In this document: positions 4,916 to 53,433 of the stretch, one piece after another
Numbering within the stretch: the first letter of the stretch is position 1
Layout of the letters: each line of letters opens with the position of its first letter
Assembly: GCA_964596525.1 (NCBI GenBank)
Contig: CAZQUL010000001.1
Span: 1,212,312-1,276,311 of the forward strand
Length of the DNA: 64,000 nt
Direction of reading: 5' to 3'
Origin: an uncultured Gammaproteobacteria bacterium
GTDB lineage: Bacteria; Patescibacteriota; Patescibacteriia; Magasanikbacterales; GWA2-37-8
Program-made: the position numbers and the translations under genes
Notes under the pieces: generated by a model
Told to the model about the DNA's origin: nothing
The model's database searches: none
Seen by the model: only the letters and a program-made list of their open reading frames with translations

Positions 4916-5701
4916 ATGAGAAGAAATCTGGCACTTGCCCTCTTTATCAGCTGCCTATCCAGCTGCGTTGCGGAAAGTTTTCACAGTATTGTTTATCGTA
5001 CTGCGGAGCCCTTCCGTATCACCATTGGATACACCAAATTCGCCGCACCCAACGTGACAGTGATCGGCGGTATGGTAGCGCCGGCAGAATTTGTCTGCCA
5101 CAACGTGCGCAAACTGCTGCCGGACAAAAAATGCATCGTACCCAAGACGCTCAAGGAAATGACGCGGTTTGATGTCGCAAGTCCGCCACGGGGATATACG
5201 CGCAGGCAGCTTGAGGAAATGGCCGCCAAGCTCCCCTATTATCCATCGACCCTCAAGATGCTTTTCGTGGATGGTCCATCGCCCAACCGCGCGGCCAACG
5301 CCCGACACTGGCGCCCCGGACCGCTCAACAGCGAACTCGTCATTATCTACACCGCGGAAATCAACGCCAATTTCGAAGAGCTTAACCCGCGCAACACGAC
5401 CGACACAACGGAATGGCGCGAGCGACGCAATCTGTACGAGGCTAAAATTGTCGTGCATGAGATCGGACATGCACTAGGACTCGTTAACCTGGGAGTTCCC
5501 GAAAAAACACGACATCGGCACCCATACGCCAAACACCACTGCCGCAATGTTTCGTGTGTCATGCACTATGGCGTTAAAAATGTGACGAGTGCGGATTTTA
5601 CCGCATGGAAAGCACGCCATCGGGCAGTGGGATGGGAGGCAGACGTCGTGTTTGACGGATGGTGTATAGAAGATATACAAACCAGCACGAGAAAAAAATA
5701 A
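4916..5701 (+). CDS. Archaemetzincin-like (M54-type) zinc metalloprotease, predicted lipoprotein
   Basis: HEIGHALGL...H...HHC....SCVMHYG matches the archaemetzincin HExxHxxGx3CX4CXM pattern. N-terminal lipoprotein signal (LFISCLSSC). Confidence 0.6.
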   Translation: MRRNLALALFISCLSSCVAESFHSIVYRTAEPFRITIGYTKFAAPNVTVIGGMVAPAEFVCHNVRKLLPDKKCIVPKTLKEMTRFDVASPPRGYTRRQLEEMAAKLPYYPSTLKMLFVDGPSPNRAANARHWRPGPLNSELVIIYTAEINANFEELNPRNTTDTTEWRERRNLYEAKIVVHEIGHALGLVNLGVPEKTRHRHPYAKHHCRNVSCVMHYGVKNVTSADFTAWKARHRAVGWEADVVFDGWCIEDIQTSTRKK

Positions 5702-5703
5702 CA

Positions 5704-5731
5704 ACCCCCGGAGACGGGGGTTTGGTTATTT
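5704..5731. terminator. Bidirectional hairpin terminator
   Basis: cccccg gaga cggggg followed by tttggttattt. It lies between the convergent genes ending at 5701 and 5739. Confidence 0.5.
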
Positions 5732-5738
5732 CTATGGA

Positions 5739-6041
5739 TTAGGATTTTTCAAGGCTTGCGTAACGATCGACTAACGCTTTCGCCTCATCAATTGCCTTTT
5801 TAATATTTTCATCAGCAAATGTTTCTGGCACACCTTCTACATCTTCCTCTTTACGAAAATGACCATTTATTTTTTCAAGACCGGGAAGAACTTTGGAAAT
5901 TTCGGTTACTATTCCATCCCGCTCTTCGTTCCGCGCCCAGGCATGCATCGAGGTGAGACGTTCCTGGAGTTCACCGGCGCGTTTTTGGAGCATTTCTTTT
6001 TCAAATTTGGGTTCGAACATGACTTTTTGTTCGGGGTTCAT
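5739..6041 (-). CDS. Small acidic hypothetical protein (100 aa) next to the distal end of the CRISPR array
   Basis: Uninterrupted ORF with an AT-rich upstream region; predicted helical; no recognisable family. Confidence 0.4.
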   Translation of the reverse strand: MNPEQKVMFEPKFEKEMLQKRAGELQERLTSMHAWARNEERDGIVTEISKVLPGLEKINGHFRKEEDVEGVPETFADENIKKAIDEAKALVDRYASLEKS

Positions 6042-6138
6042 AGAATTTTATCTAACTAAAATATAAAATAGCTTCTTAATTATAACAAATTTTATAGATT
6101 CCTGCCCAGCAATAAATTAAAATCTCTTCTCAGCGGAG

Positions 6139-7050
6139 ATCTACAAAAGTAGAAATCGAATGTATGTATTAGAGCTCGATGTTAACGATCCCACCGCCAA
6201 ATCTACAAAAGTAGAAATCGAATGTATGTATTAGAGCGGGGAGAATTGAACGTGGACAAATTATCTACAAAAGTAGAAATCGAATGTATGTATTAGAGAA
6301 CCCGGGCCTTATAAGGCCGCTCACATCTACAAAAGTAGAAATCGAATGTATGTATTAGAGAACCCGGGCCTTATAAGGCCGCTCACATCTACAAAAGTAG
6401 AAATCGAATGTATGTATTAGAGATTAATTTCCATGCCACGGGTGAACTGAATCTACAAAAGTAGAAATCGAATGTATGTATTAGAGTATTTTTGGGTGGG
6501 GGGAGTACCAACCATCTACAAAAGTAGAAATCGAATGTATGTATTAGAGCCGAGAGAAGATTCAGGAGCAAAACGCATCTACAAAAGTAGAAATCGAATG
6601 TATGTATTAGAGAAAAAGACGGTGAAAGTTTTGAGCAAGATCTACAAAAGTAGAAATCGAATGTATGTATTAGAGTTCAAGATGGCATGCCGTACGACAA
6701 TATCTACAAAAGTAGAAATCGAATGTATGTATTAGAGAAATGGTGATGATGAACGCTTATTGAAATCTACAAAAGTAGAAATCGAATGTATGTATTAGAG
6801 AGCGAGACCATCAGTTTGCGAGAAGACGATCTACAAAAGTAGAAATCGAATGTATGTATTAGAGTGGCACGACAGGAAGCGCGATTGCAATCTACAAAAG
6901 TAGAAATCGAATGTATGTATTAGAGGATCGCTGAATCAAGATGCTCTTACATCTACAAAAGTAGAAATCGAATGTATGTATTAGAGTGCTAAGAATCGCG
7001 CAAAAAAATCTGCTATCTACAAAAGTAGAAATCGAATGTATGTATTAGAG
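6139..7050 (-). CRISPR. Type V-A (Cas12a) CRISPR array of 15 repeats and 14 spacers, transcribed on the minus strand. The 36-bp repeat reads CTCTAATACATACATTCGATTTCTACTTTTGTAGAT on the transcribed strand.
   Basis: 15 exact copies of atctacaaaagtagaaatcgaatgtatgtattagag begin at 6139, 6201, 6263, 6325, 6387, 6451, 6514, 6577, 6640, 6702, 6765, 6829, 6890, 6951 and 7015. Spacers are 25-28 nt. The repeat 3' end on the minus strand is the Cas12a crRNA hairpin AUUUCUACUUUUGUAGAU. Confidence 0.95.
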
Positions 7051-7217
7051 TCCAACTTTCGCTCTGTTGAGCATAAAAAAGATACAAACCCCGCGAATGC
7101 GGCGGCGACTTTTGGGCCCAACAGAGCGAAACCGAAAAAATAAGGACGGAGGTTTTGGCAATACAGACACACCGATTTCTCCCTACCCGAAGGTAAGGCA
7201 GATTGAGTTGTCAAAGT
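7051..7217 (-). promoter_or_regulatory. CRISPR leader between cas2 and the first, newest repeat
   Basis: Non-coding 167 bp between the cas2 stop (7218) and repeat 15 (7015-7050). It contains a 12-bp inverted repeat ttcgctctgttg(7057-7068)/caacagagcgaa(7113-7124). Confidence 0.5.
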
Positions 7218-7499
7218 TCATTCAAAGACGACCACTTCTTGTTCTTCATTGACCGCGTATCCGTAACGATAGATCTTTTTTTCGCAACCAATGCACAGAG
7301 GAAATATAACAATGCTATCGGCGTTTGTAAAGTGCGGCGCATAGCTCATTTCGATCTCCGCGATGATATTGTCGAGTGCGCGCGGACTGTTCTTTATTTC
7401 GAACACCGAGTACTGCAAACGTCGTCCGTATTTCTCCAAAAATTTTGAAAAACGAGAGCGCCGACGGTTCGACTCAAAATCGTAAGAGGCGATAAACAT
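7218..7499 (-). CDS. cas2: CRISPR-associated endoribonuclease Cas2
   Basis: 93 aa with the Cas2 hallmarks MFIASYDF...RRRSRFSKFLEKYGRRLQYSVFE. Sits 3 nt downstream of the cas1 stop. Confidence 0.85.
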   Translation of the reverse strand: MFIASYDFESNRRRSRFSKFLEKYGRRLQYSVFEIKNSPRALDNIIAEIEMSYAPHFTNADSIVIFPLCIGCEKKIYRYGYAVNEEQEVVVFE

Positions 7500-7502
7500 A
7501 CG

Positions 7503-8471
7503 CTATAGCGAGAATGTCGGAAATGGTCTTTTCTGATCACTAGGCAAATCCATTTCATTGAAAATATAGAAATAGAACGAATGAATATACTTAAACACTT
7601 CTTCTTTGCGATCCATAATCGCCTGCGCGAAAATCGTTGTATATTTTTTCTGATGCTCGTACATAATTTTCCACTCCCCTTTTTCCTCAAAAAAATCTTT
7701 TTCGTCGATCTGTTTCAAGTTGTATGATTTGACGAGTTGACGCTCGATAATGCAACGCATCGGTTCCATCAAATCACAAGCCAAGGACTTACGCTGGAAG
7801 AAAAGTTTGTGGTAGAAGCCCTTATACGTATCGAGACCATGCAGCGACAGGAGAGCACCCGTAACATGGAAAAGAAACGTATAGCCGATATCGAGAAGCG
7901 TATTATTGATATCCACTTTAGTACGCGGCATACGGCGGTACCATTTTATATCCCTAAAATAAGCCTGATAAAATTCTTTACTCGCAACGCCTTCGAGACC
8001 AAGAAGCGATTCGCCACTATTGACACTCATTACTTTAGCCAATTTTTCAGCAAGCCAGTCATCGCCAATCTGGCTACGTTCTTTAAGCAAGAAGTGTTGA
8101 TTTTTAATTTTGTTGGCCACGATCAGTTTTGCCATAGTCAGTTCCTGATCCGAGGTCAGAGCGTACTGTTTGCCACGCAAGATAAAATTACCGGCGGCTT
8201 CGGACGGAATTTCGGCATAGCATTTCAAGTTGTCGCCGAGCAGGAAGATAGAAACTCCATACTCGATGCACTTACGGATGAGCGGCGAGCTGATAGTGCA
8301 CGTACCGGTAATAAAGAGCGCCAAGATTTTATGGCACGAGAGCTGGTTTATTACCTCACCATCGCGCCGCAGGCAGACGTTTTCGTTCTTGAACGAGAGG
8401 TTGTTTTCTTTAAGATCGCTGCCGTTAATAAAGAGGATCTGTTTTTCACGGAAGTCAGGTAAGCTGATCAT
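7503..8471 (-). CDS. cas1: CRISPR-associated integrase Cas1
   Basis: 322 aa with a Cas1-like fold and conserved acidic/His positions. Its ATG overlaps the cas4 stop (ATGA). Confidence 0.9.
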   Translation of the reverse strand: MISLPDFREKQILFINGSDLKENNLSFKNENVCLRRDGEVINQLSCHKILALFITGTCTISSPLIRKCIEYGVSIFLLGDNLKCYAEIPSEAAGNFILRGKQYALTSDQELTMAKLIVANKIKNQHFLLKERSQIGDDWLAEKLAKVMSVNSGESLLGLEGVASKEFYQAYFRDIKWYRRMPRTKVDINNTLLDIGYTFLFHVTGALLSLHGLDTYKGFYHKLFFQRKSLACDLMEPMRCIIERQLVKSYNLKQIDEKDFFEEKGEWKIMYEHQKKYTTIFAQAIMDRKEEVFKYIHSFYFYIFNEMDLPSDQKRPFPTFSL

Positions 8472-9034
8472 AGGTTTTCGGGCACATCATCACGGCAGAG
8501 CGGGCGGTAGATGCACTGCGCGCATTTGTTAAGATTGGTTTGGAGTTGCCAGTTAGCTGGATTGCGGTCATCGCGCATACGGGCGATGAAAGCGAAGAAT
8601 GGCTCGAGATCTTTGTCGGTCGGCCTGGCTATCGGGTAGCGCTTGTTGTCGTCGAGCGAGCGGATAACAAGGCTTTCGACCGGGCACCCCATTTCTTCAA
8701 GGCAGATCAGCTGCGCGTAGAGCTGGTAACGGTAACCGTCGAAAACCTGTTTCACTTTCTTCTTGCGTTCGATGAGTAGTTTCTTATCAGCGTCGTAGAT
8801 GTCGATCTTGCCCGCGAGCCCGTGCACATCGGAGTACACGGGCATGCCGACGCGGTAACGCTTGAGCGAAGAATACGTTCCTTTATCGATGGCTTCATGC
8901 GCGATCTTGCCAGCGGTCTGGTAATGGCTATGGTAGGTTTCGGTATTGAAGTTATCGTAGATGGTTTTGAGGTAAACCGAGCGCGGGCAGAAGATGAAGT
9001 CGTTGAGTTTAGAGATTTGGATGTAGGAGTCCAT
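8468..9034 (-). CDS. cas4: CRISPR-associated Cas4 (RecB-like nuclease with an Fe-S cluster)
   Basis: About 188 aa with a Cys at the N-terminus plus C-terminal CxxCxxxxxC (NKCAQCIYRPLC) and a RecB-nuclease core. The ATG at 9032-9034 sits 1 nt from the cas12a stop. Confidence 0.85.
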   Translation of the reverse strand: MDSYIQISKLNDFIFCPRSVYLKTIYDNFNTETYHSHYQTAGKIAHEAIDKGTYSSLKRYRVGMPVYSDVHGLAGKIDIYDADKKLLIERKKKVKQVFDGYRYQLYAQLICLEEMGCPVESLVIRSLDDNKRYPIARPTDKDLEPFFAFIARMRDDRNPANWQLQTNLNKCAQCIYRPLCRDDVPENL

Positions 9035-9035
9035 G

Positions 9036-12000
9036 TTAGGTATTGATACTAACAAATTTTTTCCAATCTCTTACAGCACTATCCCAATCTTTGTTCGAGA
9101 TAAATCCGGGATCATCATAATTTTTCCTTATCTTATACAGTTGCATTAAGCCCTTTCGCGCAATATTGTACGCCCCGTTTGCATCTCCGTTTGTAATTAC
9201 TGACAAATTACCGTTCATCTCTGATTTTCGAGAATCAAACGAACAAGACGGACACTCTATATAGTCGGCGTCGCTTCCTGTCTTTTCTTTATTGTAATTT
9301 CTTATCTGTGTAATAAGATTGAAGTAGAAAATTATTGCTTGAAAAAACTCAGTTTCCAATATTCTTCCTCTCTCCACCAATTGTTTGCTTATATCTTTCA
9401 GCTCAACACCATTCTTCTGAAATAAAGATTTCAGATTAGTTGTTATGGAGTTACTAACCCCGTCATTAAATTCAATCGTTCTACTTTCAACATCATTCCA
9501 TTTCGTCCTGGAAACATTCGAAAAAACCACATCAACTCCTTCGTAGAAATCATTCTTGCCTTTATTTTTACATTCCTGCTTCCATGCATATTCAAAACTG
9601 AAGCGATCTTTTACCGAATCATAAGAAATTTTAATATCACCAGACTTTAATAATTTAATGATCTTTTCTTTAGACTCAGAATTCTTTATGTGGAGTCTTT
9701 TGCGCCAGCCGCATTTTGGATGAGGGCAAATTTTTGATGTATAACTAGCCGGAATATAAATTACCGCACCAATCTGGTTGTTTTTCTCCATCTGTTCTAC
9801 AGAATCGATTAATGGGGTAAGCTGATATGCCCCTCTAAAATTGGCACGTTCTTTATCGACCAAATAACCAAGCTTATCAATCAAAGATTTTTCAAAAGCT
9901 TGATATACTTGCCTTTCACGGAAAAATCTTGTTTTCTTAAAATTACCACCCAGGTCTTCGAGCACGTTCAACGTGGCAATGCCTCGATCAAAACCAGAAA
10001 AAATCTCACGTGAAATCCAGTGAATTACATTACCCAGATATGCTTCCTTTAAGGATCTGATGGGCGTCATCTTTTGCCAATTCTTCTGCTCCCAGTCCCG
10101 CTGCCCTTCCCGACTTACCAATAGTTGAAAATAATCGACTGGTTCTTTTACCTCAGTGCCGTCGGCTAATTTTCTAACTTTTTCACCGACTTTATTTAAA
10201 CTTCCGCACTTGCGATCCTCAATCTCACCATATTCGTTCAAAATACAATAATAAATAAGATTATTTTCACCCCGATCCATACCTAGGATTCTTACCGGAA
10301 CTTGAGCGATAAGTTTTTTATTTATCTCTTTATTGAATTCATCTAAGTCCATCTGCTTACCGAAATTCAATCGTATTTTAAGATGTAAAATTAAAGCATC
10401 TTTTGCGAACCGCCGGTGCTGTATTACTTCTTTTTCTTTATTTCCATCTCTTTGATCAATAAAAACAATATCTTTTCCGTTTTTTTGATATGTTTTTAAC
10501 CTCACATCTTCCGTCTTTGGACGGAACCTTATTTCTGCCTTTCCATCAAGTTCGTAGATACACTTGCTTGTGTCTTTACTTTTAATATTGGCAATATTCT
10601 CTAAGCTAAAAAGTTCAAAAAAATATTGAGTAAACAGATTTACTTTAGAAGGCAGATTAGCTTGCTTATACGGATTATTTTTACCTAATTTATTTTCAAT
10701 ATCATAAAAATCTTTTGTATGTATCCTGAATAAGAAAAGGCTGCCATCTTTAATATTTTTTTGAACATAATTTTTATTTACTCTTTTCAGATCAATCCAA
10801 TAAGCCTGCCTCTGAACATGAGCAACAAAATCATCTCTATCTTTGTAGTCCTGTGGTCGTCTAAAATTTAGATTAAAGCGTCTCCAGTCGTCCCTTTTTC
10901 CTAAACAGGAAATATAATATTCGATAAGTTGATCCATTTTCTCTTTAGGAAAATTAAAATCTAATCTTTTTTCTTTTTTTCGCAGCTCCTTAAACTCGTC
11001 GTATTCTTTCTTTATGTTTATATATTTCTCTAATTTTTCTAGATCACCATCTAAAAATTCTTCGGCGAGTTTCAACTTCTTATTTTTCAATTCCTCAGGT
11101 TTTTTCTTGTCATTAGCTTTTCCAAAGGCAATGCCCTCGAATTTGCCAATATCAAGTTGTTTGTACTCTATCTTTTCATAATAATCTTCATCATCAGCTA
11201 TATTATAAGCTTCTTTAACCTCTTCAATTTTTTTGCCAAACTTTTTGTGAAATAAATCACCTCTCTTATTCCCAACACCTAAGTAATACTCATTATTCTT
11301 ACGCAGTAGAACGCCGTGATAATCTAGCTCCTTATTCATATCCCACCCATCCAAAAGATGATCGGCACCGAAGTTCAATTTAATTTCTTTTGTAGTATTC
11401 CGAGATCTCTTTTTTAGATAATTGCCAAATTTATCAAAGTAGATAAACGGAACAAAATCATCGCCTATAAACCCGTCAAATTTTTCATAAAAACCTCTAT
11501 CCTTCTCACCTTCATCGATTTTTGTTTCCTGCTCTTCATTCAACCAAAATATTTCTGCTCGTTTTACAATATCTAAGACTGCCCTTGAATAACTAAGAAC
11601 AGCGAGACAGAAATCCCCTTCGTCCTCATCTCTCATTTTTTCATCATTCTTAACTTTATCCTCAAACCATCTGATTGCTTTTTCCAAAACAATCTTTTTC
11701 TGCTCCAAAGGAATTACGGCCTCCTTTTTTCCTCCCATGACTATCGTTTCGCCTCCTAAAATCAATAAATCTACCTCATGTTTCAAAAGTGAGATGAAGA
11801 CCTCAAACTGATCTCTATTTTCAGCGATATTATCAAAGGAATTTTTATATTCCAATCGGTTATTTTTAAAAAAATTCTTGATATCATCAAAAGTAACAAG
11901 GTCTAAAACAGTCCGCCCGTCATGAAAAATAGCCATAAATTTTTCCGGTTCTCGAAAAATCTTATTTGCAAATGTATTTACTTTATTCTTCGCCAAAAAG

Positions 12001-13235
12001 ACTTTGGAAAGATTTATCCCATTCTTATCATGATCCAAAAAGAAGGATAGCAGGCCCTGGGCTTTTGCAACTTTTTCTTCACTATGTACCAAAAAGAAAT
12101 TCAATTCACGGATCAAATCAGAATCATTCTCAATGAATATTTCTTTTCGAAAGATCTGAGAAAGAATTCTTTTCTGCAGACGTACAAAAAAGGGATATTC
12201 CCTTTTGTTAAACTTACTTCTTTCTTGACCTTTTTTCTTCTGTTTTTGAAGTTCCTTATGTTCGCTCTGTTTTTTTTGAATATAAAGGTTAACAACCTGA
12301 TTAAGACCAATACCACTTACCATCCTTTCTTTTTTATGAGATTCACCACCTAAAATTCTTGCATAGTTATCAATACCTTGCTGGGTAATGCAGTTATTAT
12401 AATAGTCAACGTCAAAAATACCAGGCTTCTCGTCTTCATTATTTCGACACAATCTCTCCGTGATTAACGAAAAATCAATATCAGTATTTTTATAGTTATC
12501 TTGGTAATTTTTTATATTCTTGTAAAAGAGCTCAAAATTACTCAAAATCCTTTCACTCAAAGACCCCTTCTTACCTTTTACCGAATAAAGAAGTTCTCTC
12601 TTTTTACAGAAATCAGCTAAATACCCAGCGTCCATTTCAAAAATATTTTTTGGACTACCCTGTTTATCTTGATATTCAATATCAGGAAATTCTAGCTCTT
12701 TATGGTTATTTTTTTCTCGTAAATCCTTTACTTCAGCTGAAGTAAAGCTCTCTTTTAATTTTAAAAGGCATTTTTTTGGAGATAAGTCGTCCGCTCCCGC
12801 CTTTTTAAAAACTCTATCAATTTGCTCTAGCAGAGCACCTTGAGCGAGCAAGAGCCTAGTTTTTAATTCTTTAATTTTCATCTTCTTTTCATTTTTATCA
12901 GAATCTTTATCTTTTTTACCTTGAGCCAAGGCATCTAAAGCAGCGGCATAGTTGAGCAGGTCTTTCTTCTCAAAATTTAAACTTCTCAACGAATTATCAA
13001 TAATCTTTCGATGTAGAATATCTAAATAAAATTTAACAACCTTAATATTCTCGGCCATTTTCTTATCAGCTTCGATAATTCCATGGCTTTTTAAAGCACT
13101 CCATTCTTCATCTTCAACCAGCTCATTAGTTCTATCATCTACTTTCAAGGGGACGAGCCTAAATTGAAGAGTTCTGGATAATTCGTATAAATTTTTAAAC
13201 TCCTCAATCTTACCAACTCCTTTTTCTTTTGACAT
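9036..13235 (-). CDS. cas12a: Cas12a (Cpf1) type V-A effector nuclease, about 1399 aa from ATG 13235 (1407 aa from an alternative TTG at 13259)
   Basis: N-terminal LYELSRTLQFRLVPL matches the Cas12a WED motif (compare LSKTLRFELIP). RuvC-I is LGMDRGENNLIYY, RuvC-II is VLEDLGGNFKKTRF, and RuvC-III/Nuc is NGDANGAYNIARKG. Gene order is cas12a-cas4-cas1-cas2-array. The gene is strongly AT-rich. Confidence 0.92.
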   Translation of the reverse strand: MSKEKGVGKIEEFKNLYELSRTLQFRLVPLKVDDRTNELVEDEEWSALKSHGIIEADKKMAENIKVVKFYLDILHRKIIDNSLRSLNFEKKDLLNYAAALDALAQGKKDKDSDKNEKKMKIKELKTRLLLAQGALLEQIDRVFKKAGADDLSPKKCLLKLKESFTSAEVKDLREKNNHKELEFPDIEYQDKQGSPKNIFEMDAGYLADFCKKRELLYSVKGKKGSLSERILSNFELFYKNIKNYQDNYKNTDIDFSLITERLCRNNEDEKPGIFDVDYYNNCITQQGIDNYARILGGESHKKERMVSGIGLNQVVNLYIQKKQSEHKELQKQKKKGQERSKFNKREYPFFVRLQKRILSQIFRKEIFIENDSDLIRELNFFLVHSEEKVAKAQGLLSFFLDHDKNGINLSKVFLAKNKVNTFANKIFREPEKFMAIFHDGRTVLDLVTFDDIKNFFKNNRLEYKNSFDNIAENRDQFEVFISLLKHEVDLLILGGETIVMGGKKEAVIPLEQKKIVLEKAIRWFEDKVKNDEKMRDEDEGDFCLAVLSYSRAVLDIVKRAEIFWLNEEQETKIDEGEKDRGFYEKFDGFIGDDFVPFIYFDKFGNYLKKRSRNTTKEIKLNFGADHLLDGWDMNKELDYHGVLLRKNNEYYLGVGNKRGDLFHKKFGKKIEEVKEAYNIADDEDYYEKIEYKQLDIGKFEGIAFGKANDKKKPEELKNKKLKLAEEFLDGDLEKLEKYINIKKEYDEFKELRKKEKRLDFNFPKEKMDQLIEYYISCLGKRDDWRRFNLNFRRPQDYKDRDDFVAHVQRQAYWIDLKRVNKNYVQKNIKDGSLFLFRIHTKDFYDIENKLGKNNPYKQANLPSKVNLFTQYFFELFSLENIANIKSKDTSKCIYELDGKAEIRFRPKTEDVRLKTYQKNGKDIVFIDQRDGNKEKEVIQHRRFAKDALILHLKIRLNFGKQMDLDEFNKEINKKLIAQVPVRILGMDRGENNLIYYCILNEYGEIEDRKCGSLNKVGEKVRKLADGTEVKEPVDYFQLLVSREGQRDWEQKNWQKMTPIRSLKEAYLGNVIHWISREIFSGFDRGIATLNVLEDLGGNFKKTRFFRERQVYQAFEKSLIDKLGYLVDKERANFRGAYQLTPLIDSVEQMEKNNQIGAVIYIPASYTSKICPHPKCGWRKRLHIKNSESKEKIIKLLKSGDIKISYDSVKDRFSFEYAWKQECKNKGKNDFYEGVDVVFSNVSRTKWNDVESRTIEFNDGVSNSITTNLKSLFQKNGVELKDISKQLVERGRILETEFFQAIIFYFNLITQIRNYNKEKTGSDADYIECPSCSFDSRKSEMNGNLSVITNGDANGAYNIARKGLMQLYKIRKNYDDPGFISNKDWDSAVRDWKKFVSINT

Positions 13236-13268
13236 ATGATATGACTTAAAAAATAACAAAAATCAAAA

Positions 13269-45313: not shown

Positions 45314-46000
45314 TCACCGCTGGAGATGTTTGTGAGCGATGAGTTTTTCGATACGGGCAAACACATCGAAGCGCTCGATAAGCGGGTTGAGCCAACCCAC
45401 CGTAATGCAATAAAAAGTATCAAAAGGCGCTGTGTGGTGGCGATTGTGGTGCTCAGGAGAAAGAATAAGCCGATGGCGCTGCAAAAAGCGAACGAAGCGC
45501 GGCGCGGTCGGCATGTGAGCCCACTTGTGAATTTGGTTTGTAAGAAAAATTGCAGCAAGGAACGTGAGGAAACCCAAACCAAGGAACCACCACACGGGCT
45601 GCTCTGAGGTACGAAAGAAAACGAACACGGGAATCATGACAATGAGTGATGCAAGGCAGTTTAACCCATTCACTTCGGTAAAGCTGTGGCGCGTGATAGC
45701 GAGCGGATCCACATGATGATGACGGAATGGAAACACGAAATGCGGACCGAAGAAAGGGGTTTTCTCATCACCGAACTGGTCACCGATCCAATGGACAACA
45801 CCCGAGATAAAGTCGGCGGCTACATATGAGACGCCCATAACCGCAAGAGCACCTATACCCGCAAGCCAGAAACCATAGGCTTGCACAACAGAAAAAGCCT
45901 TGCGAACAACTTCAGCCGCAAAAACAGTGCTAAGTACTATAAAACTCCAGGTGGACAGCCACAACACCAGGCGAAACGTGAAGATAGTACTCATACCCAT
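45314..46000 (-). CDS. CarF/TMEM189-family lipid desaturase-like membrane protein
   Basis: His clusters HHHVD...HKWAH...HHNRHH and the YCITVGWLN motif typical of the Kua/TMEM189/CarF family. The ORF-track start at 46120 would overlap tRNA-Trp, so the start is set at Met 46000. Confidence 0.55.
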   Translation of the reverse strand: MGMSTIFTFRLVLWLSTWSFIVLSTVFAAEVVRKAFSVVQAYGFWLAGIGALAVMGVSYVAADFISGVVHWIGDQFGDEKTPFFGPHFVFPFRHHHVDPLAITRHSFTEVNGLNCLASLIVMIPVFVFFRTSEQPVWWFLGLGFLTFLAAIFLTNQIHKWAHMPTAPRFVRFLQRHRLILSPEHHNRHHTAPFDTFYCITVGWLNPLIERFDVFARIEKLIAHKHLQR

Positions 46001-46027
46001 GTACCACGGACAAAAGTGACGAACAGT

Positions 46028-46098
46028 GCGCGGGGTGAGGGAATCGAACCCCCGACAACGGTTTTGGAGACCGTAGTTATACCATTTAACTAACCCCG
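46028..46098 (-). tRNA. tRNA-Trp (anticodon CCA), no encoded CCA end
   Basis: Cloverleaf on the minus strand: acceptor GCGGGGU/ACCCCGC; D-arm GUUA/UAAC; anticodon stem ACGGU/ACCGU with loop CUCCAAA; T-arm GGGGG-UUCGAUU-CCCUC; discriminator G. Confidence 0.8.
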
Positions 46099-46144
46099 CA
46101 GGTTCAGGCGGCAGCGCCACCTGAGCGTACCATAGGCTTTACGG

Positions 46145-48099: not shown

Positions 48100-49167
48100 T
48101 TAGTATAAAGCCGTGCCCTTAGCCGACTGCTGGCGAAACCCGAGAATGATGCTTACCGCAATCATCGCGATGAAAGCACCCACCAGTACGAGAATTTTTC
48201 CTCTGGTCTGCAAAAACAGGGTTGTTATGCCCAGTCCGGTGGCGACAGCGTAAATCGTTATCACTACCTGACGTTCGGACCAACCATGGTCTAGCAAGCG
48301 GTAATGCAGGTGTTCGCGATCACCGGCAGTAACGGGACGATGACGCAGCAGTCGTACCACGAAAACACGTACCAGATCAAGGATGGGGATAGCCATAACG
48401 AGAAGTGCAGTGGCAACTTTGCCGCCGGAAATGACCGCCAAGACGCCGAGCATAAATCCAATAAACAAACTTCCTCCTTCACCCAAAAAAATGCGGGCTG
48501 GCTGGAAGTTGAACCACAAGAATCCCAAGCAAACACCCACGAAAACGGTAGCCAATACTGCAACTTCTGGCTGCCAGAAACGCATGGTTTGGGTAAGGAG
48601 AAGAATCATGGTGCCGCCAATCGCTGCCACACCGGTCGCAAGGCCGTCGAGGCCATCGAGGATTTTGGTAGTGTACATCATACCCATCAACCAAGCGATA
48701 ACAAAGACATCCCCAACAACGACAATGCGTTCCCCAAGGGCTGGGAGTCCGAGCGGCAGATCGAGCGGTAAAATGCCGCCGAGCGGATGCGTAATACTGC
48801 GCAGCGTGATGCCGCACCCAACCGCCACCACCGCAGCAACGAGCGTACCTACGAACCGGCTCGCTGGGGAACGCGGTTTGCAATCATCCAAAACACCAAT
48901 CATTATAAGCAAGAAGCTCGCAGCGGCTGCCCCCCAAAGCTGCAGGGTGGTAATCGTACGCGTATCGAGATGCTGCCACCAGGCAAGCACGCCGACAATA
49001 CCCCAAAAAGCCGCCCATAACGCTACGCCGCCCAAAAGCGGTACTGAGCGCCCGTGGCGTTTCCGCTCGTCGGGAATATCGAGCACGCCGTAGCGTAGGG
49101 CTAGAGCCCGCACACCCACCGTTGCCACAGCAGTAACTGTAACGCTAACCAAAAACAAAAGCGCCAT
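48100..49167 (-). CDS. MraY/WecA-family UDP-HexNAc:polyprenol-phosphate HexNAc-1-phosphate transferase (glycosyltransferase family 4)
   Basis: Multi-TM protein with the conserved DD motif (GVLDDCK) and the VFVGDxGSLxxG-like FLGEGGSLFIGF motif. Confidence 0.75.
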   Translation of the reverse strand: MALLFLVSVTVTAVATVGVRALALRYGVLDIPDERKRHGRSVPLLGGVALWAAFWGIVGVLAWWQHLDTRTITTLQLWGAAAASFLLIMIGVLDDCKPRSPASRFVGTLVAAVVAVGCGITLRSITHPLGGILPLDLPLGLPALGERIVVVGDVFVIAWLMGMMYTTKILDGLDGLATGVAAIGGTMILLLTQTMRFWQPEVAVLATVFVGVCLGFLWFNFQPARIFLGEGGSLFIGFMLGVLAVISGGKVATALLVMAIPILDLVRVFVVRLLRHRPVTAGDREHLHYRLLDHGWSERQVVITIYAVATGLGITTLFLQTRGKILVLVGAFIAMIAVSIILGFRQQSAKGTALY

Positions 49168-49169
49168 AT

Positions 49170-50843
49170 TTAGGAAGCGGTCGGAGACGGAGCGTCATCT
49201 GGACGATCAAGAGGAACCCAAACACCGAATTCACTCCCCTTGCCGATCCCTGCGCTCTTTGCCCACACGCGACCACCATGTGCCTCGGCGAACTTACCAA
49301 CCACATAGAGACCCAACCCAGTACCAGTTACGTTTACGCCGCGCACATTTTCACCGCGATAAAACTTCTGGAAAAAGTTGACCCGATCATTCTCCTCAAA
49401 ACCGACACCTTGGTCGACGACGCGCACAGCGACACCTTCGTCTTCTTTTTTAACGGTTACGGTAATGACACCCTGATCGCTGTACTTGATGGCATTATCA
49501 ACGAAATTGAAAATAATGTGGCGCATTTTTTCCTGATCAACTTTAGCCTCAATGAGTTCAGCGGGTTTCTTCCAATCGATTTTAAGCTTTTTACTGCGCA
49601 GCTTGCCGGATAGTTCGAGGACCACGCTCGTCACTAAAGCGCAGATGTCCGCGCGCTCAAAAACAAACTTGGTGCGACCTTGCTCGATGCGGGTGATATC
49701 CAGAAATTCGTCGACGAGCGTGACAAGACGATGGTTGGTTTCATCCATATTCATGAGCGCTTCTTTGATCTGCTGCTGAACCGTACCGTACGCCCCTTCT
49801 TCAAGAAGTTCGATATAGCCATTGAAAATAGAAAGCGGGGTGCGTAGCTGGTGCGAAGCAATGGAGAGGAACTCGTTTTTCTGACGATCGAGCTCTTCCA
49901 GTCGAACGTTGGCTTCGCGCAAATCAACATTGGCTTTTTGCAGCGATTCGGTAAGTTTGGCAAGTTCTTCTTTTTGCTGGACTTCTTTTTTGACACTGCG
50001 CACCAGTACCGCACCGATAGCGGCGACGATAGTGGCAAAAATAACTTTGTAAAAAATGGTGCCAGGCGAAGCGGAAAATAGCCCTTCAGCCACCAGGATG
50101 AGCACGAGAATACCGACGAGAAGTTCGGCAGCCAGGACTTTTATATCGAATAACTGATGCTTGAAAATCGCGTAGGCCGTAAACCCCATGAGTATGACCG
50201 ACGTAAGCGGCCCAAGAAAGACGGTGGCGGAATTCTTGAAAATAACAACCGAAAACAACGCGGAAACAACCATGAAAGTGAACGAAGAAATAACGCCAGC
50301 CAAAAAATAACGCAACTGGCGGCGTTCTTTGCCGGTAGAACGGCGGTATTTTCGAATAAGCGTAATGAAGCTGAGCAGGAATAGCCCCGGAAATGCAAGG
50401 AAGAAAATCGGCATACCAGGACCGGGCGTGGGGAGGGGTTGGCCATTGGGGTACTGCAGATCGGTAAAAATGAGGGGCGTAGTAGAAGCGTACACCGAAG
50501 CACTGCCGATTAGAAGAACGAGAACAAGATAGGCCGGCCGCAGAGAAAGTTTTTCCCCGGGAAATGCGCAGGTTAATAGAAAAAGTAAGGGTCCAAGAAG
50601 CGAGGTAATAACCATTACCGAACGGATCCAAAAGAACTGACTCTCCCCTGGCCCGCCTGGTGGGTGAAGCGAAATGAAATTGAACACGATGTAGGTATCA
50701 ATGGCCAGGCTGAGTAAAAAGAACAGCCGGTGCGTGGCGCTTTTGGGATTGCGGATAAATACCAGAAGACCAAAGTAGGTGGTAAGCAAGAACGTGGTAA
50801 CCCCTAAAATGATCTCGATATGGAAAAAAGAAAGTCCGTTCAT
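49170..50843 (-). CDS. Sensor histidine kinase with a multi-TM N-terminal sensor domain
   Basis: HisKA box ELDRQKNEFLSIASHQLRTPLS plus HATPase_c motifs (NAIKYS..., DQGVGF, GTGLGLYVV). Confidence 0.8.
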   Translation of the reverse strand: MNGLSFFHIEIILGVTTFLLTTYFGLLVFIRNPKSATHRLFFLLSLAIDTYIVFNFISLHPPGGPGESQFFWIRSVMVITSLLGPLLFLLTCAFPGEKLSLRPAYLVLVLLIGSASVYASTTPLIFTDLQYPNGQPLPTPGPGMPIFFLAFPGLFLLSFITLIRKYRRSTGKERRQLRYFLAGVISSFTFMVVSALFSVVIFKNSATVFLGPLTSVILMGFTAYAIFKHQLFDIKVLAAELLVGILVLILVAEGLFSASPGTIFYKVIFATIVAAIGAVLVRSVKKEVQQKEELAKLTESLQKANVDLREANVRLEELDRQKNEFLSIASHQLRTPLSIFNGYIELLEEGAYGTVQQQIKEALMNMDETNHRLVTLVDEFLDITRIEQGRTKFVFERADICALVTSVVLELSGKLRSKKLKIDWKKPAELIEAKVDQEKMRHIIFNFVDNAIKYSDQGVITVTVKKEDEGVAVRVVDQGVGFEENDRVNFFQKFYRGENVRGVNVTGTGLGLYVVGKFAEAHGGRVWAKSAGIGKGSEFGVWVPLDRPDDAPSPTAS

Positions 50844-50918: not shown

Positions 50919-52142
50919 TTACCAGCGGGAAACGGATAACGAGCGTTTGTTGAAGAGTGCCCGCGCTGGATACTCGTAACCAAGGCGAAGGCGCGCAATG
51001 GTTTCGGCGGCCAAACCACCAGCTACGGCTACTGTAGAACCGAGCTGCGGAAACATGGTTTCTGACGGACGGGGCAACGAACCGTTTAATATTGCTCCAA
51101 GCTCATCGCGGCGATACGCGGTGCCGATAAGCGCATCTACGAATGCAAAAAAAGCGCTGCGATCACTCGGGTTTGCGAGTGCCGCTTCGCAGGTACGGTA
51201 GAGTACATCGTCAGCAGCCGCATGTGTCAGGGTAAGGGTCGGATCAAGATCAAATCGTCGCACATCAAGCTGGACCGCTGAGCCAATATCGGTAACCATA
51301 ATAAGAGGCAAGCGGCGTTCGCGGGCTTTAGCGCGCAAAAGGATTTTGATTCGCGGATCATCGATTTCATCAACCACTACCTGAACCTTAGGTTCGGTAG
51401 AGTTACCGCCCAGAAATCCATTTATAGCACGCTCGTCAACACCTTGCTCATAGGTGAAAATCTGCATAAATGGATCGATAGCTAAAAGCTGCTCTTTGAC
51501 AGTCGGGGCTTTGAAATTCGGCTCGAGATTATTCCACCCCGGAGCGATGAATTCAGCGTAACCGACGCGCACGCGGTTCATGTTCTCGAGTTTGTAGCGG
51601 CTGCGGTCGGCGATTTTGATGGCTCGCGGACGCAAATCCATAGCGAGCGCATGAATAACACTGCTCCCCACGCTGCAACCAGCTACAGCCACCACGGTCG
51701 AGGCAAGCGTTTCCTGAATTTTTTCCCACGACCAGGATTCGCATGCATGCTGATAAAGGCTGCCGGCCGTTGCGATGAGCGCTAAACGATGCCAACGTGC
51801 CGGAGCGTAGCGCACCACGTGGCGCCGCGTCGGGTAATAAGCCAGGACGCCATAGTGCATCGCAGCAGGAAACACCCGCTCGGCATGACGACGGTAATGC
51901 CGGTATTCAGCCTCAAACTCCTGACGGAGCGTACAACCGCTTTCGAGAATGGGTGAGGCCTCTGCGCGCACCAACCGTTCATTCAGGAGTTCCATGGTGT
52001 GGGGAAGCATGTCAAAACATGATTCGCGGCCAAATGTAATCCAGCCTTCAGGCAGTTTAAGCTCTGCGCCTTCAAATAAAAATCTGACAGCAGCGGAACT
52101 GTCGCGGCGACTCAGATCGAACAAACGGATATCAGTGTACAT
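50919..52142 (-). CDS. E1-like (ThiF/MoeB-family) adenylyltransferase-fold protein with an N-terminal extension of about 170 aa
   Basis: Rossmann motif VAVAGCSVGSSVIHALAMDLRPRAIKIADRSRYKLENMNRV resembles ThiF VxVxGxGGxGS...D.D...NLNRQ. Start set at MYTDIRLFD (ATG 52140-52142), overlapping the upstream gene's stop by 11 nt. Confidence 0.5.
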   Translation of the reverse strand: MYTDIRLFDLSRRDSSAAVRFLFEGAELKLPEGWITFGRESCFDMLPHTMELLNERLVRAEASPILESGCTLRQEFEAEYRHYRRHAERVFPAAMHYGVLAYYPTRRHVVRYAPARWHRLALIATAGSLYQHACESWSWEKIQETLASTVVAVAGCSVGSSVIHALAMDLRPRAIKIADRSRYKLENMNRVRVGYAEFIAPGWNNLEPNFKAPTVKEQLLAIDPFMQIFTYEQGVDERAINGFLGGNSTEPKVQVVVDEIDDPRIKILLRAKARERRLPLIMVTDIGSAVQLDVRRFDLDPTLTLTHAAADDVLYRTCEAALANPSDRSAFFAFVDALIGTAYRRDELGAILNGSLPRPSETMFPQLGSTVAVAGGLAAETIARLRLGYEYPARALFNKRSLSVSRW

Positions 52143-53262
52143 AACTAGGTGTAAATAATGAACGCGCAGCGCGGCCCATGAGCTGACGCCAGGCGCTGGC
52201 ATGACCCAATCGAAGCCGCGGACCATCAGCCACACGACGATCGACCAACTGGCGAACCAGATCGCCCGTTAAGGCTGAACGAGGCAGCACCCCTTCGTGA
52301 GCAAGAAACCGACCCATTCCGCGAATAAGCGGCAACACTTCATACGGATGGTCTTTTTGCCAAGCCATCAAGGAATCAAGTGTTGCCGCAGGTACAAACT
52401 CCTGAAGAGTCTGCAGGTCTAGATGGTCAGAGCGGATTAAATCAACAAGCAGCGCTAAAAGTTCGGGAATACAGAGAAAATACCCGGGGTAGTCATAGGT
52501 AATACCCGGACGGATAAGACGCACATCGCAAGCCCCGCACTGCAAAAAATCTTCGGCTAACGGAAAAGCTCTCCCCCACGCTTCGAGACCTTTCGTAGAT
52601 CGGGCCAAACGATGGAAGAGCTCATTGCGAAAAACCCCCGAAAGAACCGAGAAATTACTGCCGTAGGTACGCCAGAATACTTCGTTTATAGCCACAAAAG
52701 CAGCAGAGACAGCACCGGAGCGTATTTCAGAAATATCGAACGCATCCATATCCCCGACTAAGGGATGCGGCGGCGTAGCTGCAAAACGCGACAGTGAAAC
52801 AAGACGGGTCAAAACATCGCGGTGATGCAAAAAATCACCTTTCAATACCGAAACAAGTGGCGTGCCGGATAACGCAAACAACTCCAAGTCTTCAAGCGAT
52901 GGAGGATCGGTTTCTCCGGGAACGAACCGGAGCGTCACCCATTCCCTCAGCCAGACCGGAGATGTTCCGGCACGCGGCCATGGATACGTTATTTCAGCCA
53001 CATAAACCACCCCCCGTTCATCAAATTCGTCAACGAGCTCCAAAGAACCGTAATAGTGGCGGTAGGATTCGCGGGCGTGAACTACGGCGTGGCGCAGACG
53101 TTCGTCTACCCACTCGGATGTGTATAAAGGCTTGGCGAGAAAAATACGCAGGGTACGGGTCGCAACAGTGCAGGTTTCTAAGAGCGCGCTCGGCGGAAAG
53201 GAAACGTCGGAGGGAAACGCGCCGTCGCAACAAAATAAAAAAGGCTGCCCCACACGATACAC
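52132..53262 (-). CDS. Hypothetical protein (376 aa), translationally coupled to the E1-like gene
   Basis: Long ORF with host-like GC and no recognisable motifs beyond scattered His/Asp. Confidence 0.45.
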   Translation of the reverse strand: MYRVGQPFLFCCDGAFPSDVSFPPSALLETCTVATRTLRIFLAKPLYTSEWVDERLRHAVVHARESYRHYYGSLELVDEFDERGVVYVAEITYPWPRAGTSPVWLREWVTLRFVPGETDPPSLEDLELFALSGTPLVSVLKGDFLHHRDVLTRLVSLSRFAATPPHPLVGDMDAFDISEIRSGAVSAAFVAINEVFWRTYGSNFSVLSGVFRNELFHRLARSTKGLEAWGRAFPLAEDFLQCGACDVRLIRPGITYDYPGYFLCIPELLALLVDLIRSDHLDLQTLQEFVPAATLDSLMAWQKDHPYEVLPLIRGMGRFLAHEGVLPRSALTGDLVRQLVDRRVADGPRLRLGHASAWRQLMGRAARSLFTPSYVH

Positions 53263-53433
53263 AGAAAATGCGTAATCTTATATCAAGCACAATAAGCCGG
53301 GCTTCTACCTCCGTCAACACTATGACGAGGATTGTTATCCACATTAATGAACCGGGTTAGCCCAAACGGGTAGAGACCCTCCTCTTAATAAAGAGGATGT
53401 GCTATCATGGCATAATTATTTTATCTTTTCTGT

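Follow-up and report, generated by a model that had tools for sequence, protein, structure and literature searches.

What might be made by a pair of overlapping genes, one encoding an adenylating enzyme of the ThiF fold and the other a protein that resembles no recognisable sequence family, is a question raised by a stretch of 64,000 nucleotides (termed here the window) from contig CAZQUL010000001.1, which is assigned to the Magasanikbacterales, a lineage of Patescibacteria. These genes, termed here A (upstream) and B (downstream, encoding the ThiF-fold protein), were brought forward by an original prediction, made from the letters of the window, as a candidate for an undescribed module. The present analysis places them within a cassette that, in most relatives, also includes a nitroreductase-like gene (NTR) for a flavin oxidase (FDO) and, nearly always, a gene for a histidine kinase (HK). 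We consider it somewhat probable that A and B form the core of a Patescibacteria-conserved cassette that makes an N-acyl-amino-acid-derived oxazolone (azlactone). Judged by family assignments and modelled fold, the cassette would be a split, divergent, Patescibacteria-specific variant of the OxzAB, TyzACB and TrzAS oxazolone synthetases. A module whose composition matches those systems (PMC10404671, PMC12856293) is not undescribed as such; what is new is the Patescibacteria-specific variant and its linkage to a histidine kinase.

A gene set conserved across Patescibacteria

Conservation was assessed over 34 loci with a strong match to B, drawn from species-representative genomes (two of the loci duplicate others) and scanned with hidden Markov models (HMMs) of A, B, NTR and HK. 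A member of the A family stands with B in 30 of these 34, so the pairing is no chance juxtaposition; the neighbourhood check that the original prediction had proposed thus comes out in its favour, with gene fusions among the conserved pairs. NTR is present in 28 of the 34, overlapping or abutting B in 28, and is absent only from the window's clade (window/L039, L001, L040 and L041) and from L020. An HK, recognised by a profile of the cassette kinases, adjoins in 31/34, all three misses being contig ends. At least two gene orders are seen: A followed by B, a convergent NTR and then HK; or B, NTR, A and HK, all co-directional, with 4-nt overlaps. Spacing between cassette genes runs from -4 to about 100 nt, and that between A and B from -4 to +48 nt in most relatives. 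A and B form one fusion protein (795-814 aa) in L012 and L031, both within the census, and in P0235. That one gene set recurs in different orders, and that A and B can be fused, together argue strongly for a functional link.

More than 150 homologues of B, ~415 aa in length and 37-56% identical to it, were found, those that are named coming from Magasanikbacteria, Harrisonbacteria, Parcubacteria and 'Patescibacteria group' metagenome-assembled genomes (MAGs). The cassette also occurs in MAGs titled 'uncultured Gammaproteobacteria' (L005, L010, L011, L015, L016) or 'Poribacteria' (L012, L031); it is otherwise found in Patescibacteria, and these labels are probably taxonomic mislabels or the result of bin contamination. 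The fusion proteins of L012 and L031 come from both 'Poribacteria' MAGs.

Of the four loci without A, two are contig ends and the other two are L016 and L021. Directly upstream of B in L016 is a 274-aa protein (5034-5858, plus strand) with a weak FeeM match (E=1.4e-3), and in L021 an unclassified open reading frame (ORF) of 238 aa (8338-9054, minus strand) overlaps the NTR start; these small proteins may be non-orthologous replacements of A.

An intact ThiF-fold enzyme with a conserved extension

Residues 140-392 of B match the Pfam ThiF family (E=2.9e-9; 36.9 bits vs a cutoff of 28.1), in agreement with the ThiF-type Rossmann adenylation motif that had been noticed at the outset; the extension preceding it, put there at 170 aa, is about 139 aa long, the ThiF match starting at residue 140. 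The top NCBIfam match is NF005901, the Rv1355c family (E=5.9e-32), with the next family at 7e-7 or worse, and the alignment (B residues 96-390 against model positions 63-325) takes in, at B residues ~96-139, the region of Rv1355c that precedes the ThiF fold. Rv1355c is TrzS, the ThiF cyclase of TrzAS (Rv1356c/Rv1355c), which is the N-acyl-tryptazolone pathway of Mycobacterium tuberculosis and its relatives (PMC12856293).

Invariant among 26 members of the B family are G155, S157, G159, D179, N187, N189, R190, K211, E259 and D261, whose codons were confirmed in the window, that of D261 at 51360-51362 within 'VVDEIDD'. We take D261 to be the counterpart of ThiF D127, going by the 'LDCTDN' motif. 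A conserved residue of the same adenylation motif in TrzS is Asp217 (PMC12856293), to which D261 would, by motif, be equivalent. As far as its sequence tells, B is an intact ThiF-fold adenylating enzyme. Among solved structures, the B family profile comes closest to TcdA (E=1e-5). TcdA has the ThiF fold, and its own reaction is an ATP-dependent cyclodehydration that yields an oxazolone ring (PMC12596934).

The original prediction had drawn attention to several Cys in the N-terminal extension of B and had asked whether that extension is E2-like. An extra conserved domain is indeed present, but its Cys residues are not conserved: among the 26 family members, no Cys falls in a column that is invariant or conserved at a level of at least 90%, and the Cys of 'AGCSVG' in B is swapped for Ala or Gly in several of them. 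Because the family lacks a conserved Cys, a reading of B in terms of E1, E2 and ubiquitin-like (Ubl) proteins fails, and the E2-like extension with it.

An acyltransferase-like partner

That A belongs to no recognisable sequence family, as first described, holds for Pfam, NCBIfam and PDB sequence searches alike. The Pfam families Autoind_synth, FeeM and Acetyltransf_5 match none of 25 members of the A family and the NCBIfam acyltransferase models none of 127, and A, A3 and A6, searched by sequence against the PDB, returned nothing, save one chance match for A alone. Word-indexed database searches with A as a single sequence return 1 protein (itself), and those with a 25-sequence profile return 6; the family was recovered by neighbourhood mining and exhaustive HMM search, which yielded 255 representative clusters (235 with E below 1e-10). 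Since A's own search found A alone, yet what lies upstream of B in four relatives aligns over the full length of A at 26-40% identity, the family is fast-evolving.

Because Rv1355c is TrzS, A was predicted to be an acyltransferase resembling FeeM and the synthases of acyl-homoserine lactones (AHLs), and at the level of fold its model agrees. Built from a 127-sequence alignment, the AlphaFold model (pLDDT 90.5, pTM 0.89) finds as its best Foldseek matches in the PDB the AHL synthases LasI (E=1.3e-3, prob 1.00) and TofI (prob 0.98), and FeeM (prob 0.96); MesI, EsaI and BjaI lie further down, among generic GNATs, and matches to AHL synthases and FeeM span E values of 1e-3 to 2e-2. These top structural matches are to the N-terminal domain of A, to which the ~180-210-column GNAT alignments were assigned (that is, to its first ~220 residues), and they are found without any accompanying family-model match. 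FeeM and BjaI are also the structural neighbours reported for TyzA (PMC10404671). The fold thus modelled, an AHL-synthase/FeeM-like GNAT rather than the YcaO-, NTase- or HD-like protein that had been considered, points to an acyltransferase at fold level only. An earlier model of A, built from a 6-sequence alignment (pLDDT 67.5), had matched p300/CBP and GCN5 acetyltransferases, all at E>0.4; it was superseded by the deep-alignment model.

Within the N-terminal domain, R64, Y71, G72, D78, D81, Y87, E107, W108, R112, P115, S158 and R159 are near-invariant. Their pattern (R...D-x-x-D...R...S-R) resembles what we take to be the LuxI-family signature, the residue equivalences being presumed. The C-terminal domain lies outside the GNAT alignments of the top 50 Foldseek matches and has no recognised relative among them; R251, P259, Y261, L336 and R337 are near-invariant in it, and D346 is invariant in the A3 alignment.

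The sole family member that matches FeeM/exosortase-type models does so through an extra N-terminal fragment outside the A region: in P0215 (460 aa), the opening ~90 residues of a canonical FeeM/exosortase-type GNAT (Acetyltransf_5 2.3e-7; exosort_acyl 5e-16) precede a complete A. This fragment, like the FeeM-like neighbour of B in L016, fits the role proposed for A, and hhalign of A against that L016 protein was negative. Another composite, P0214 (705 aa), in which a quinone-dependent dihydroorotate dehydrogenase (PyrD) is joined to A, is a probable gene-call fusion and was not treated as a meaningful architecture.

A flavin oxidase absent from the window

The NTR of relatives has two matches, one to the Acg family of FMN oxidoreductases (E=5e-53), the other to the C-terminal half of Rv1355c (E=4e-18); since B also matches Rv1355c, B and NTR together correspond to a split Rv1355c/TrzS. 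Published oxazolone clusters have been delimited by a ThiF gene that is adjacent or fused to an FDO gene and lies next to one encoding an acyltransferase (PMC12856293). In the 64-kb window, tblastn detected no NTR-like ORF or FDO (best E=0.055), which ruled out a cryptic FDO gene, and none was found in the 3-10 kb flanks fetched for the window's nearest relatives.

Three loci of Gordonia are an actinobacterial parallel to this arrangement: in L033 (5686-7593), L035 (5695-7803) and L036 (about 5700-7662), a B-like ThiF gene has no fused or adjacent FDO and is adjoined by a convergent gene for an acyltransferase-like protein of ~250 aa, of no Pfam family. The pair has GGDEF and EAL genes on its flanks in L033 and an EAL-type gene in L035, and in L036 the long ORF itself includes a GGDEF-like segment upstream.

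Relation to known systems

The closest counterpart of the cassette by family is TrzAS, in which likewise an acyltransferase gene adjoins that of a ThiF-like cyclase; B has the TrzS family as its top match and keeps the Asp of the adenylation motif. Both kinds of locus also have signalling genes as neighbours, which encode cyclic-di-GMP enzymes in M. tuberculosis and Gordonia and a histidine kinase in Patescibacteria. However, TrzS is one fused protein of 722 aa, whereas ThiF protein and FDO are separate in Patescibacteria (the latter being absent in the window); A has no detectable TrzA-like sequence similarity and carries an extra C-terminal domain of ~150 aa; the N-terminal domain of B is longer; and the hosts are Patescibacteria, with a tightly linked seven-transmembrane (7TM) histidine kinase, rather than mycolic-acid Actinomycetota.

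The same logic--a FeeM/AHL-synthase-like N-acyltransferase, an ATP-dependent ThiF cyclase and a flavin desaturase of the nitroreductase superfamily--is shared by TyzACB (Rv2336-Rv2338c), which is the N-acyl-tyrazolone pathway (PMC10404671), and by OxzAB, which serves oxazolone synthesis in Pseudoalteromonas rubra (bioRxiv 10.1101/2020.06.11.147165). TyzACB consists of three separate proteins, as do most Patescibacteria loci, but A (about 340-390 aa, with a distinct second domain) is longer than TyzA (322 aa) and B (about 410 aa) longer than TyzB (318 aa), gene orders differ from those of Tyz and Oxz, and kinase linkage has been reported for neither. The three-enzyme logic of oxazolone synthetases was already known; the new elements are an acyltransferase family (255 clusters) with an extra domain, an oxidase that is split off or missing, a phylum-level host range and the kinase linkage. 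TcdA, at about 270 aa, acts on a tRNA substrate (ct6A) and has neither the N-terminal domain of B nor acyltransferase, FDO or HK partners.

Proposed pathway and alternative explanations

From the observed gene anatomy, family assignments and fold similarity we infer the substrates and product as follows. First, A would move an acyl group from acyl-CoA or acyl-ACP onto the amino group of an amino acid. Second, B would bind ATP and adenylate the carboxylate of the N-acyl amino acid, whereupon attack by the amide oxygen would close the 5(4H)-oxazolone ring, a ring closure that has been shown for TyzB, OxzB and TrzS (PMC10404671, bioRxiv 10.1101/2020.06.11.147165, PMC12856293). Third, in most relatives, the adjacent Acg-type FDO would desaturate the ring substituent; in TrzS, cyclisation takes place before desaturation, and disabling the oxidase causes a saturated cyclised intermediate to build up (PMC12856293). 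Fourth, the 7TM HK directly downstream would be functionally tied to the cassette. Because the oxidase is absent from the window's clade, the end product there is uncertain: it may be a saturated reactive oxazolone, an activated N-acyl amino acid or a downstream conjugate, or, if FDO is encoded elsewhere, a normal oxazolone.

Several points weigh against this pathway. A lacks any family match by sequence; the matches that Foldseek gives it are marginal (best E=1.3e-3, TM 0.44-0.51 on target length, rmsd 7-8 Å); and hhalign of A profiles against TrzA-like profiles from Gordonia and metagenomes gives probabilities of only 0.5-1%, albeit with a thin template (Neff 1.5-2.1). B reaches 110.7 bits on the Rv1355c model against an equivalog cutoff of 476, a cutoff that assumes a fused FDO. 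Neither the C-terminal domain of A, though conserved, nor the N-terminal domain of B has an assigned role, and the FDO is missing from the window. The acyl donor, moreover, is a puzzle, since Patescibacteria are generally thought to lack fatty-acid synthesis and lipid biosynthesis.

A membrane protein with a strong Lipid_desat match (PF10520, 4e-53) is encoded 5 kb from the cassette (45314-46027, minus strand), abutting a tRNA-Trp gene (46028-46099). It may be relevant to the cassette's acyl or lipid chemistry and is notable in a lineage generally thought to be without lipid biosynthesis.

Where FDO is missing, B might instead be an activating ligase that passes an activated N-acyl amino acid, or a transient azlactone, to another acceptor--an amine, a lipid head group or a component of the cell envelope--and so gives a product that is N-acyl dipeptide-like or a lipid conjugate. 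This we regard as unlikely, though to be reckoned with for that clade. In its favour, neither the window nor L001, L040, L041 or L020 has an FDO nearby; saturated azlactones are reactive acylating agents; a family-4 glycosyltransferase gene begins 2 nt after HK in the window; and A has an extra conserved domain to which a role could be given. The saturated cyclised intermediate of TrzS, too, forms without the oxidase (PMC12856293). However, no acceptor-handling enzyme is conserved alongside the cassettes that lack FDO, and what follows HK is different (the glycosyltransferase in the window vs bactofilin and a DAGK-like gene in relatives), and an FDO could sit elsewhere in the 1.34-Mb genome.

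B also lies within the E1/ThiF superfamily, and its extension is N-terminal, where MccB-type enzymes have a peptide-binding domain; modification of a protein or peptide, with A as an accessory transferase, was therefore weighed, whether by Ubl-like conjugation, by a sulfur carrier or by maturation of a ribosomally synthesised peptide as in MccB or PaaA; a reading of this sort had been raised by the original prediction. We hold it to be quite improbable, given the absence of an invariant Cys from B, the nature of its conserved partners (a GNAT-fold protein and a flavin oxidase) and its top family match, which is the small-molecule cyclase TrzS. Nor is there room for a conserved small ORF in a cassette whose genes overlap or lie within about 100 nt of each other: the small Ubl or precursor ORF that the original prediction had suggested looking for is not to be seen, the intergenic ORFs of the window being only 12-30 aa long and unsupported. 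No E2, JAB, beta-grasp, YcaO or precursor gene occurs in any neighbourhood examined, and the neighbours in those loci are A, FDO, HK and receiver genes only, with no Ubl/beta-grasp substrate and no JAB or E2 partner.

Finally, that B is a housekeeping MoeB, ThiF or TcdA beside an unrelated gene is hardly credible, even though TcdA is the closest solved structure by profile (E=1e-5) and automated names of homologues include one 'tRNA A37 threonylcarbamoyladenosine dehydratase' and several 'molybdopterin/thiamine biosynthesis adenylyltransferase', because ThiF equivalogs score B at 20-26 bits, far under their cutoffs of 152-275, TcdA is not among the NCBIfam matches of B at E<=1, the conserved ~139-aa domain of B is missing from MoeB, ThiF and TcdA, and the partnership of A with B is conserved elsewhere in co-occurrence, overlap and fusion.

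A histidine kinase as candidate receptor

If the cassette makes an oxazolone, as proposed, the kinase next to it acquires particular interest. According to Pfam, HK has a 7TM sensor, a HisKA and a HATPase_c domain and no extracytoplasmic domain. The profile of cassette kinases scores cassette-adjacent HKs at 300-950 bits, vs about 150-170 for two other nearby HKs, and because the former outscore the latter, the 7TM sensor region is conserved as well. From this gene-set conservation we infer a role for the kinase: its near-obligate adjacency makes it most likely a candidate sensor or regulator that senses a lipophilic product of the cassette or controls the synthesis of that product. Synteny is what suggests such a signalling role.

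Stand-alone CheY-like receivers of about 125-135 aa flank the cassette in 17 loci (15 distinct ones when near-duplicate contigs are left out), mostly in those of the B, NTR, A, HK type; examples are L004 3602-3994, L026 11345-12304, L027 5577-5960 and L030 11538-11906. No receiver gene, cryptic or otherwise, was found by tblastn in the 64 kb of the window.

Autoinducer synthases paired with membrane histidine-kinase receptors are familiar from LuxM/LuxN-type systems, which the cassette resembles in that the gene of an acyl-signal synthase-like protein adjoins that of a multi-pass membrane HK without an extracytoplasmic domain; it differs in its chemistry, which here would involve a ThiF cyclase and an oxazolone. 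By extension, the cassette might be a self-contained signal module of Patescibacteria, in which A and B (with FDO where present) make an oxazolone autoinducer and HK, often with a CheY-like receiver, is the cognate receptor. We put this forward tentatively, as a possibility with the balance of probability against it. If true, these ultra-small epibiotic bacteria would gain their first proposed synthase-receptor pair and oxazolones of any kind their first receptor, and the paralogous ThiF and HK modules of close relatives would be parallel signal channels.

These paralogous modules lie just upstream of A-B-HK in the nearest relatives of the window (L001 1-3627, L041 1-4645, L040 1807-4590). That of L041 consists of a cut-off ORF (weak AMP-binding_C_2), a second ThiF protein (367 aa), an alpha/beta-hydrolase and a second 7TM HK; that of L001, which lacks a hydrolase, of an unclassified cut-off ORF, a second ThiF protein (396 aa) and a second HK; and that of L040, of a KAS-III-like gene followed by a second HK without a recorded HisKA_7TM match. 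In the window, RecJ stands at the place of this second module. The modules suggest a family of units in which a ThiF biosynthetic gene is joined to a dedicated HK.

Significance

Enzymatic synthesis of N-acyl oxazolones was first reported in 2020-21 (preprint 2020; bioRxiv 10.1101/2020.06.11.147165) and its characterisation is confined to a few Proteobacteria and mycolic-acid Actinobacteria; the authors describe the physiological role as unresolved and speculate on signalling (PMC12856293; bioRxiv 10.1101/2020.06.11.147165). The papers on Trz and Oxz mention neither Patescibacteria nor a histidine kinase, and full-text searches of the literature found no paper that connects Patescibacteria or a histidine kinase with oxazolone synthesis, with ThiF plus nitroreductase or with acyl-signal systems.

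The cassette would extend this type of pathway to Patescibacteria, whose minimal genomes are thought to be without lipid biosynthesis. Near-obligate linkage to HK offers a testable candidate receptor, which could be the first for oxazolones, and hence a route to the function of these compounds and to communication between cells, or between epibiont and host, in the candidate phyla radiation. The natural clade without FDO, to which the window belongs, provides a test of the ThiF step's own product.

Gene layout and other features of the window

The features of the locus are collected in Table 1. Both genes and their overlap, as given in the original prediction, were read again from the sequence and their coordinates confirmed; independent gene calls on a public contig with identical genes give the same products of 376 and 407 aa. 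The stretch ...TTATGTACACTGA... carries both the ATG of B and the TGA of A. The reading frame of B is open from 52235 down to 50919, and its start is uncertain because homologues reach ~7-10 residues further N-terminally and an in-frame ATG lies 60 nt upstream.

Table 1. Coordinates of the A-B-HK locus in the window
Feature	Position	Strand	Remarks
Gene A	52132-53262	minus	376 aa, GTG start (ORF list); predicted N-acyltransferase of a Patescibacteria-restricted family
A, GNAT-fold domain (residues ~25-222)	52597-53190	minus	Resembles AHL synthases and FeeM (AlphaFold, Foldseek)
A, C-terminal domain (residues ~223-372)	52147-52596	minus	~150 aa; conserved, mostly helical, confidently modelled
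Gene B	50919-52142	minus	407 aa, ATG start (MYTDIRLF...); ThiF-like ATP-dependent adenylating enzyme, predicted N-acyl-amino-acid cyclase
B, N-terminal domain (residues 1-139)	51726-52142	minus	Conserved in the family; no conserved Cys (family alignment)
B, ThiF Rossmann adenylation domain (residues 140-392)	50967-51725	minus	Pfam, sequence reading, family alignment
Overlap of A stop (TGA, 52134-52132) and B start (ATG, 52142-52140)	52132-52142	minus	11 nt; read from sequence
Histidine kinase (HK)	49170-50843	minus	557 aa; HisKA_7TM, HisKA, HATPase_c (Pfam); 75 nt downstream of B
Possible sigma-70-like promoter upstream of A	53289-53317	minus	TTGACG, 17 nt, TATTGT; weak

Scans of the region for promoters and terminators gave counts at chance level, and because promoter-like sites are as frequent there as in shuffled sequence, the TTGACG/TATTGT site is no evidence of function. 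The glycosyltransferase gene that follows the HK stop (48100-49167, minus strand; MraY/WecA-like, Pfam 3.3e-28) may be co-transcribed with A, B and HK.

Well away from the cassette, the window encodes a 1407-aa ORF (9036-13259, minus strand) with Cas12a/Cpf1 domains (Pfam RuvC_1 5.7e-48, REC1 1e-21, Cpf1 PI-like 1.5e-8). The region around it (about 10-14 kb) has a GC content of 0.33-0.37, vs about 0.51 elsewhere, and a strongly negative GC skew; the ORF probably encodes a type V CRISPR effector that was acquired by horizontal transfer.

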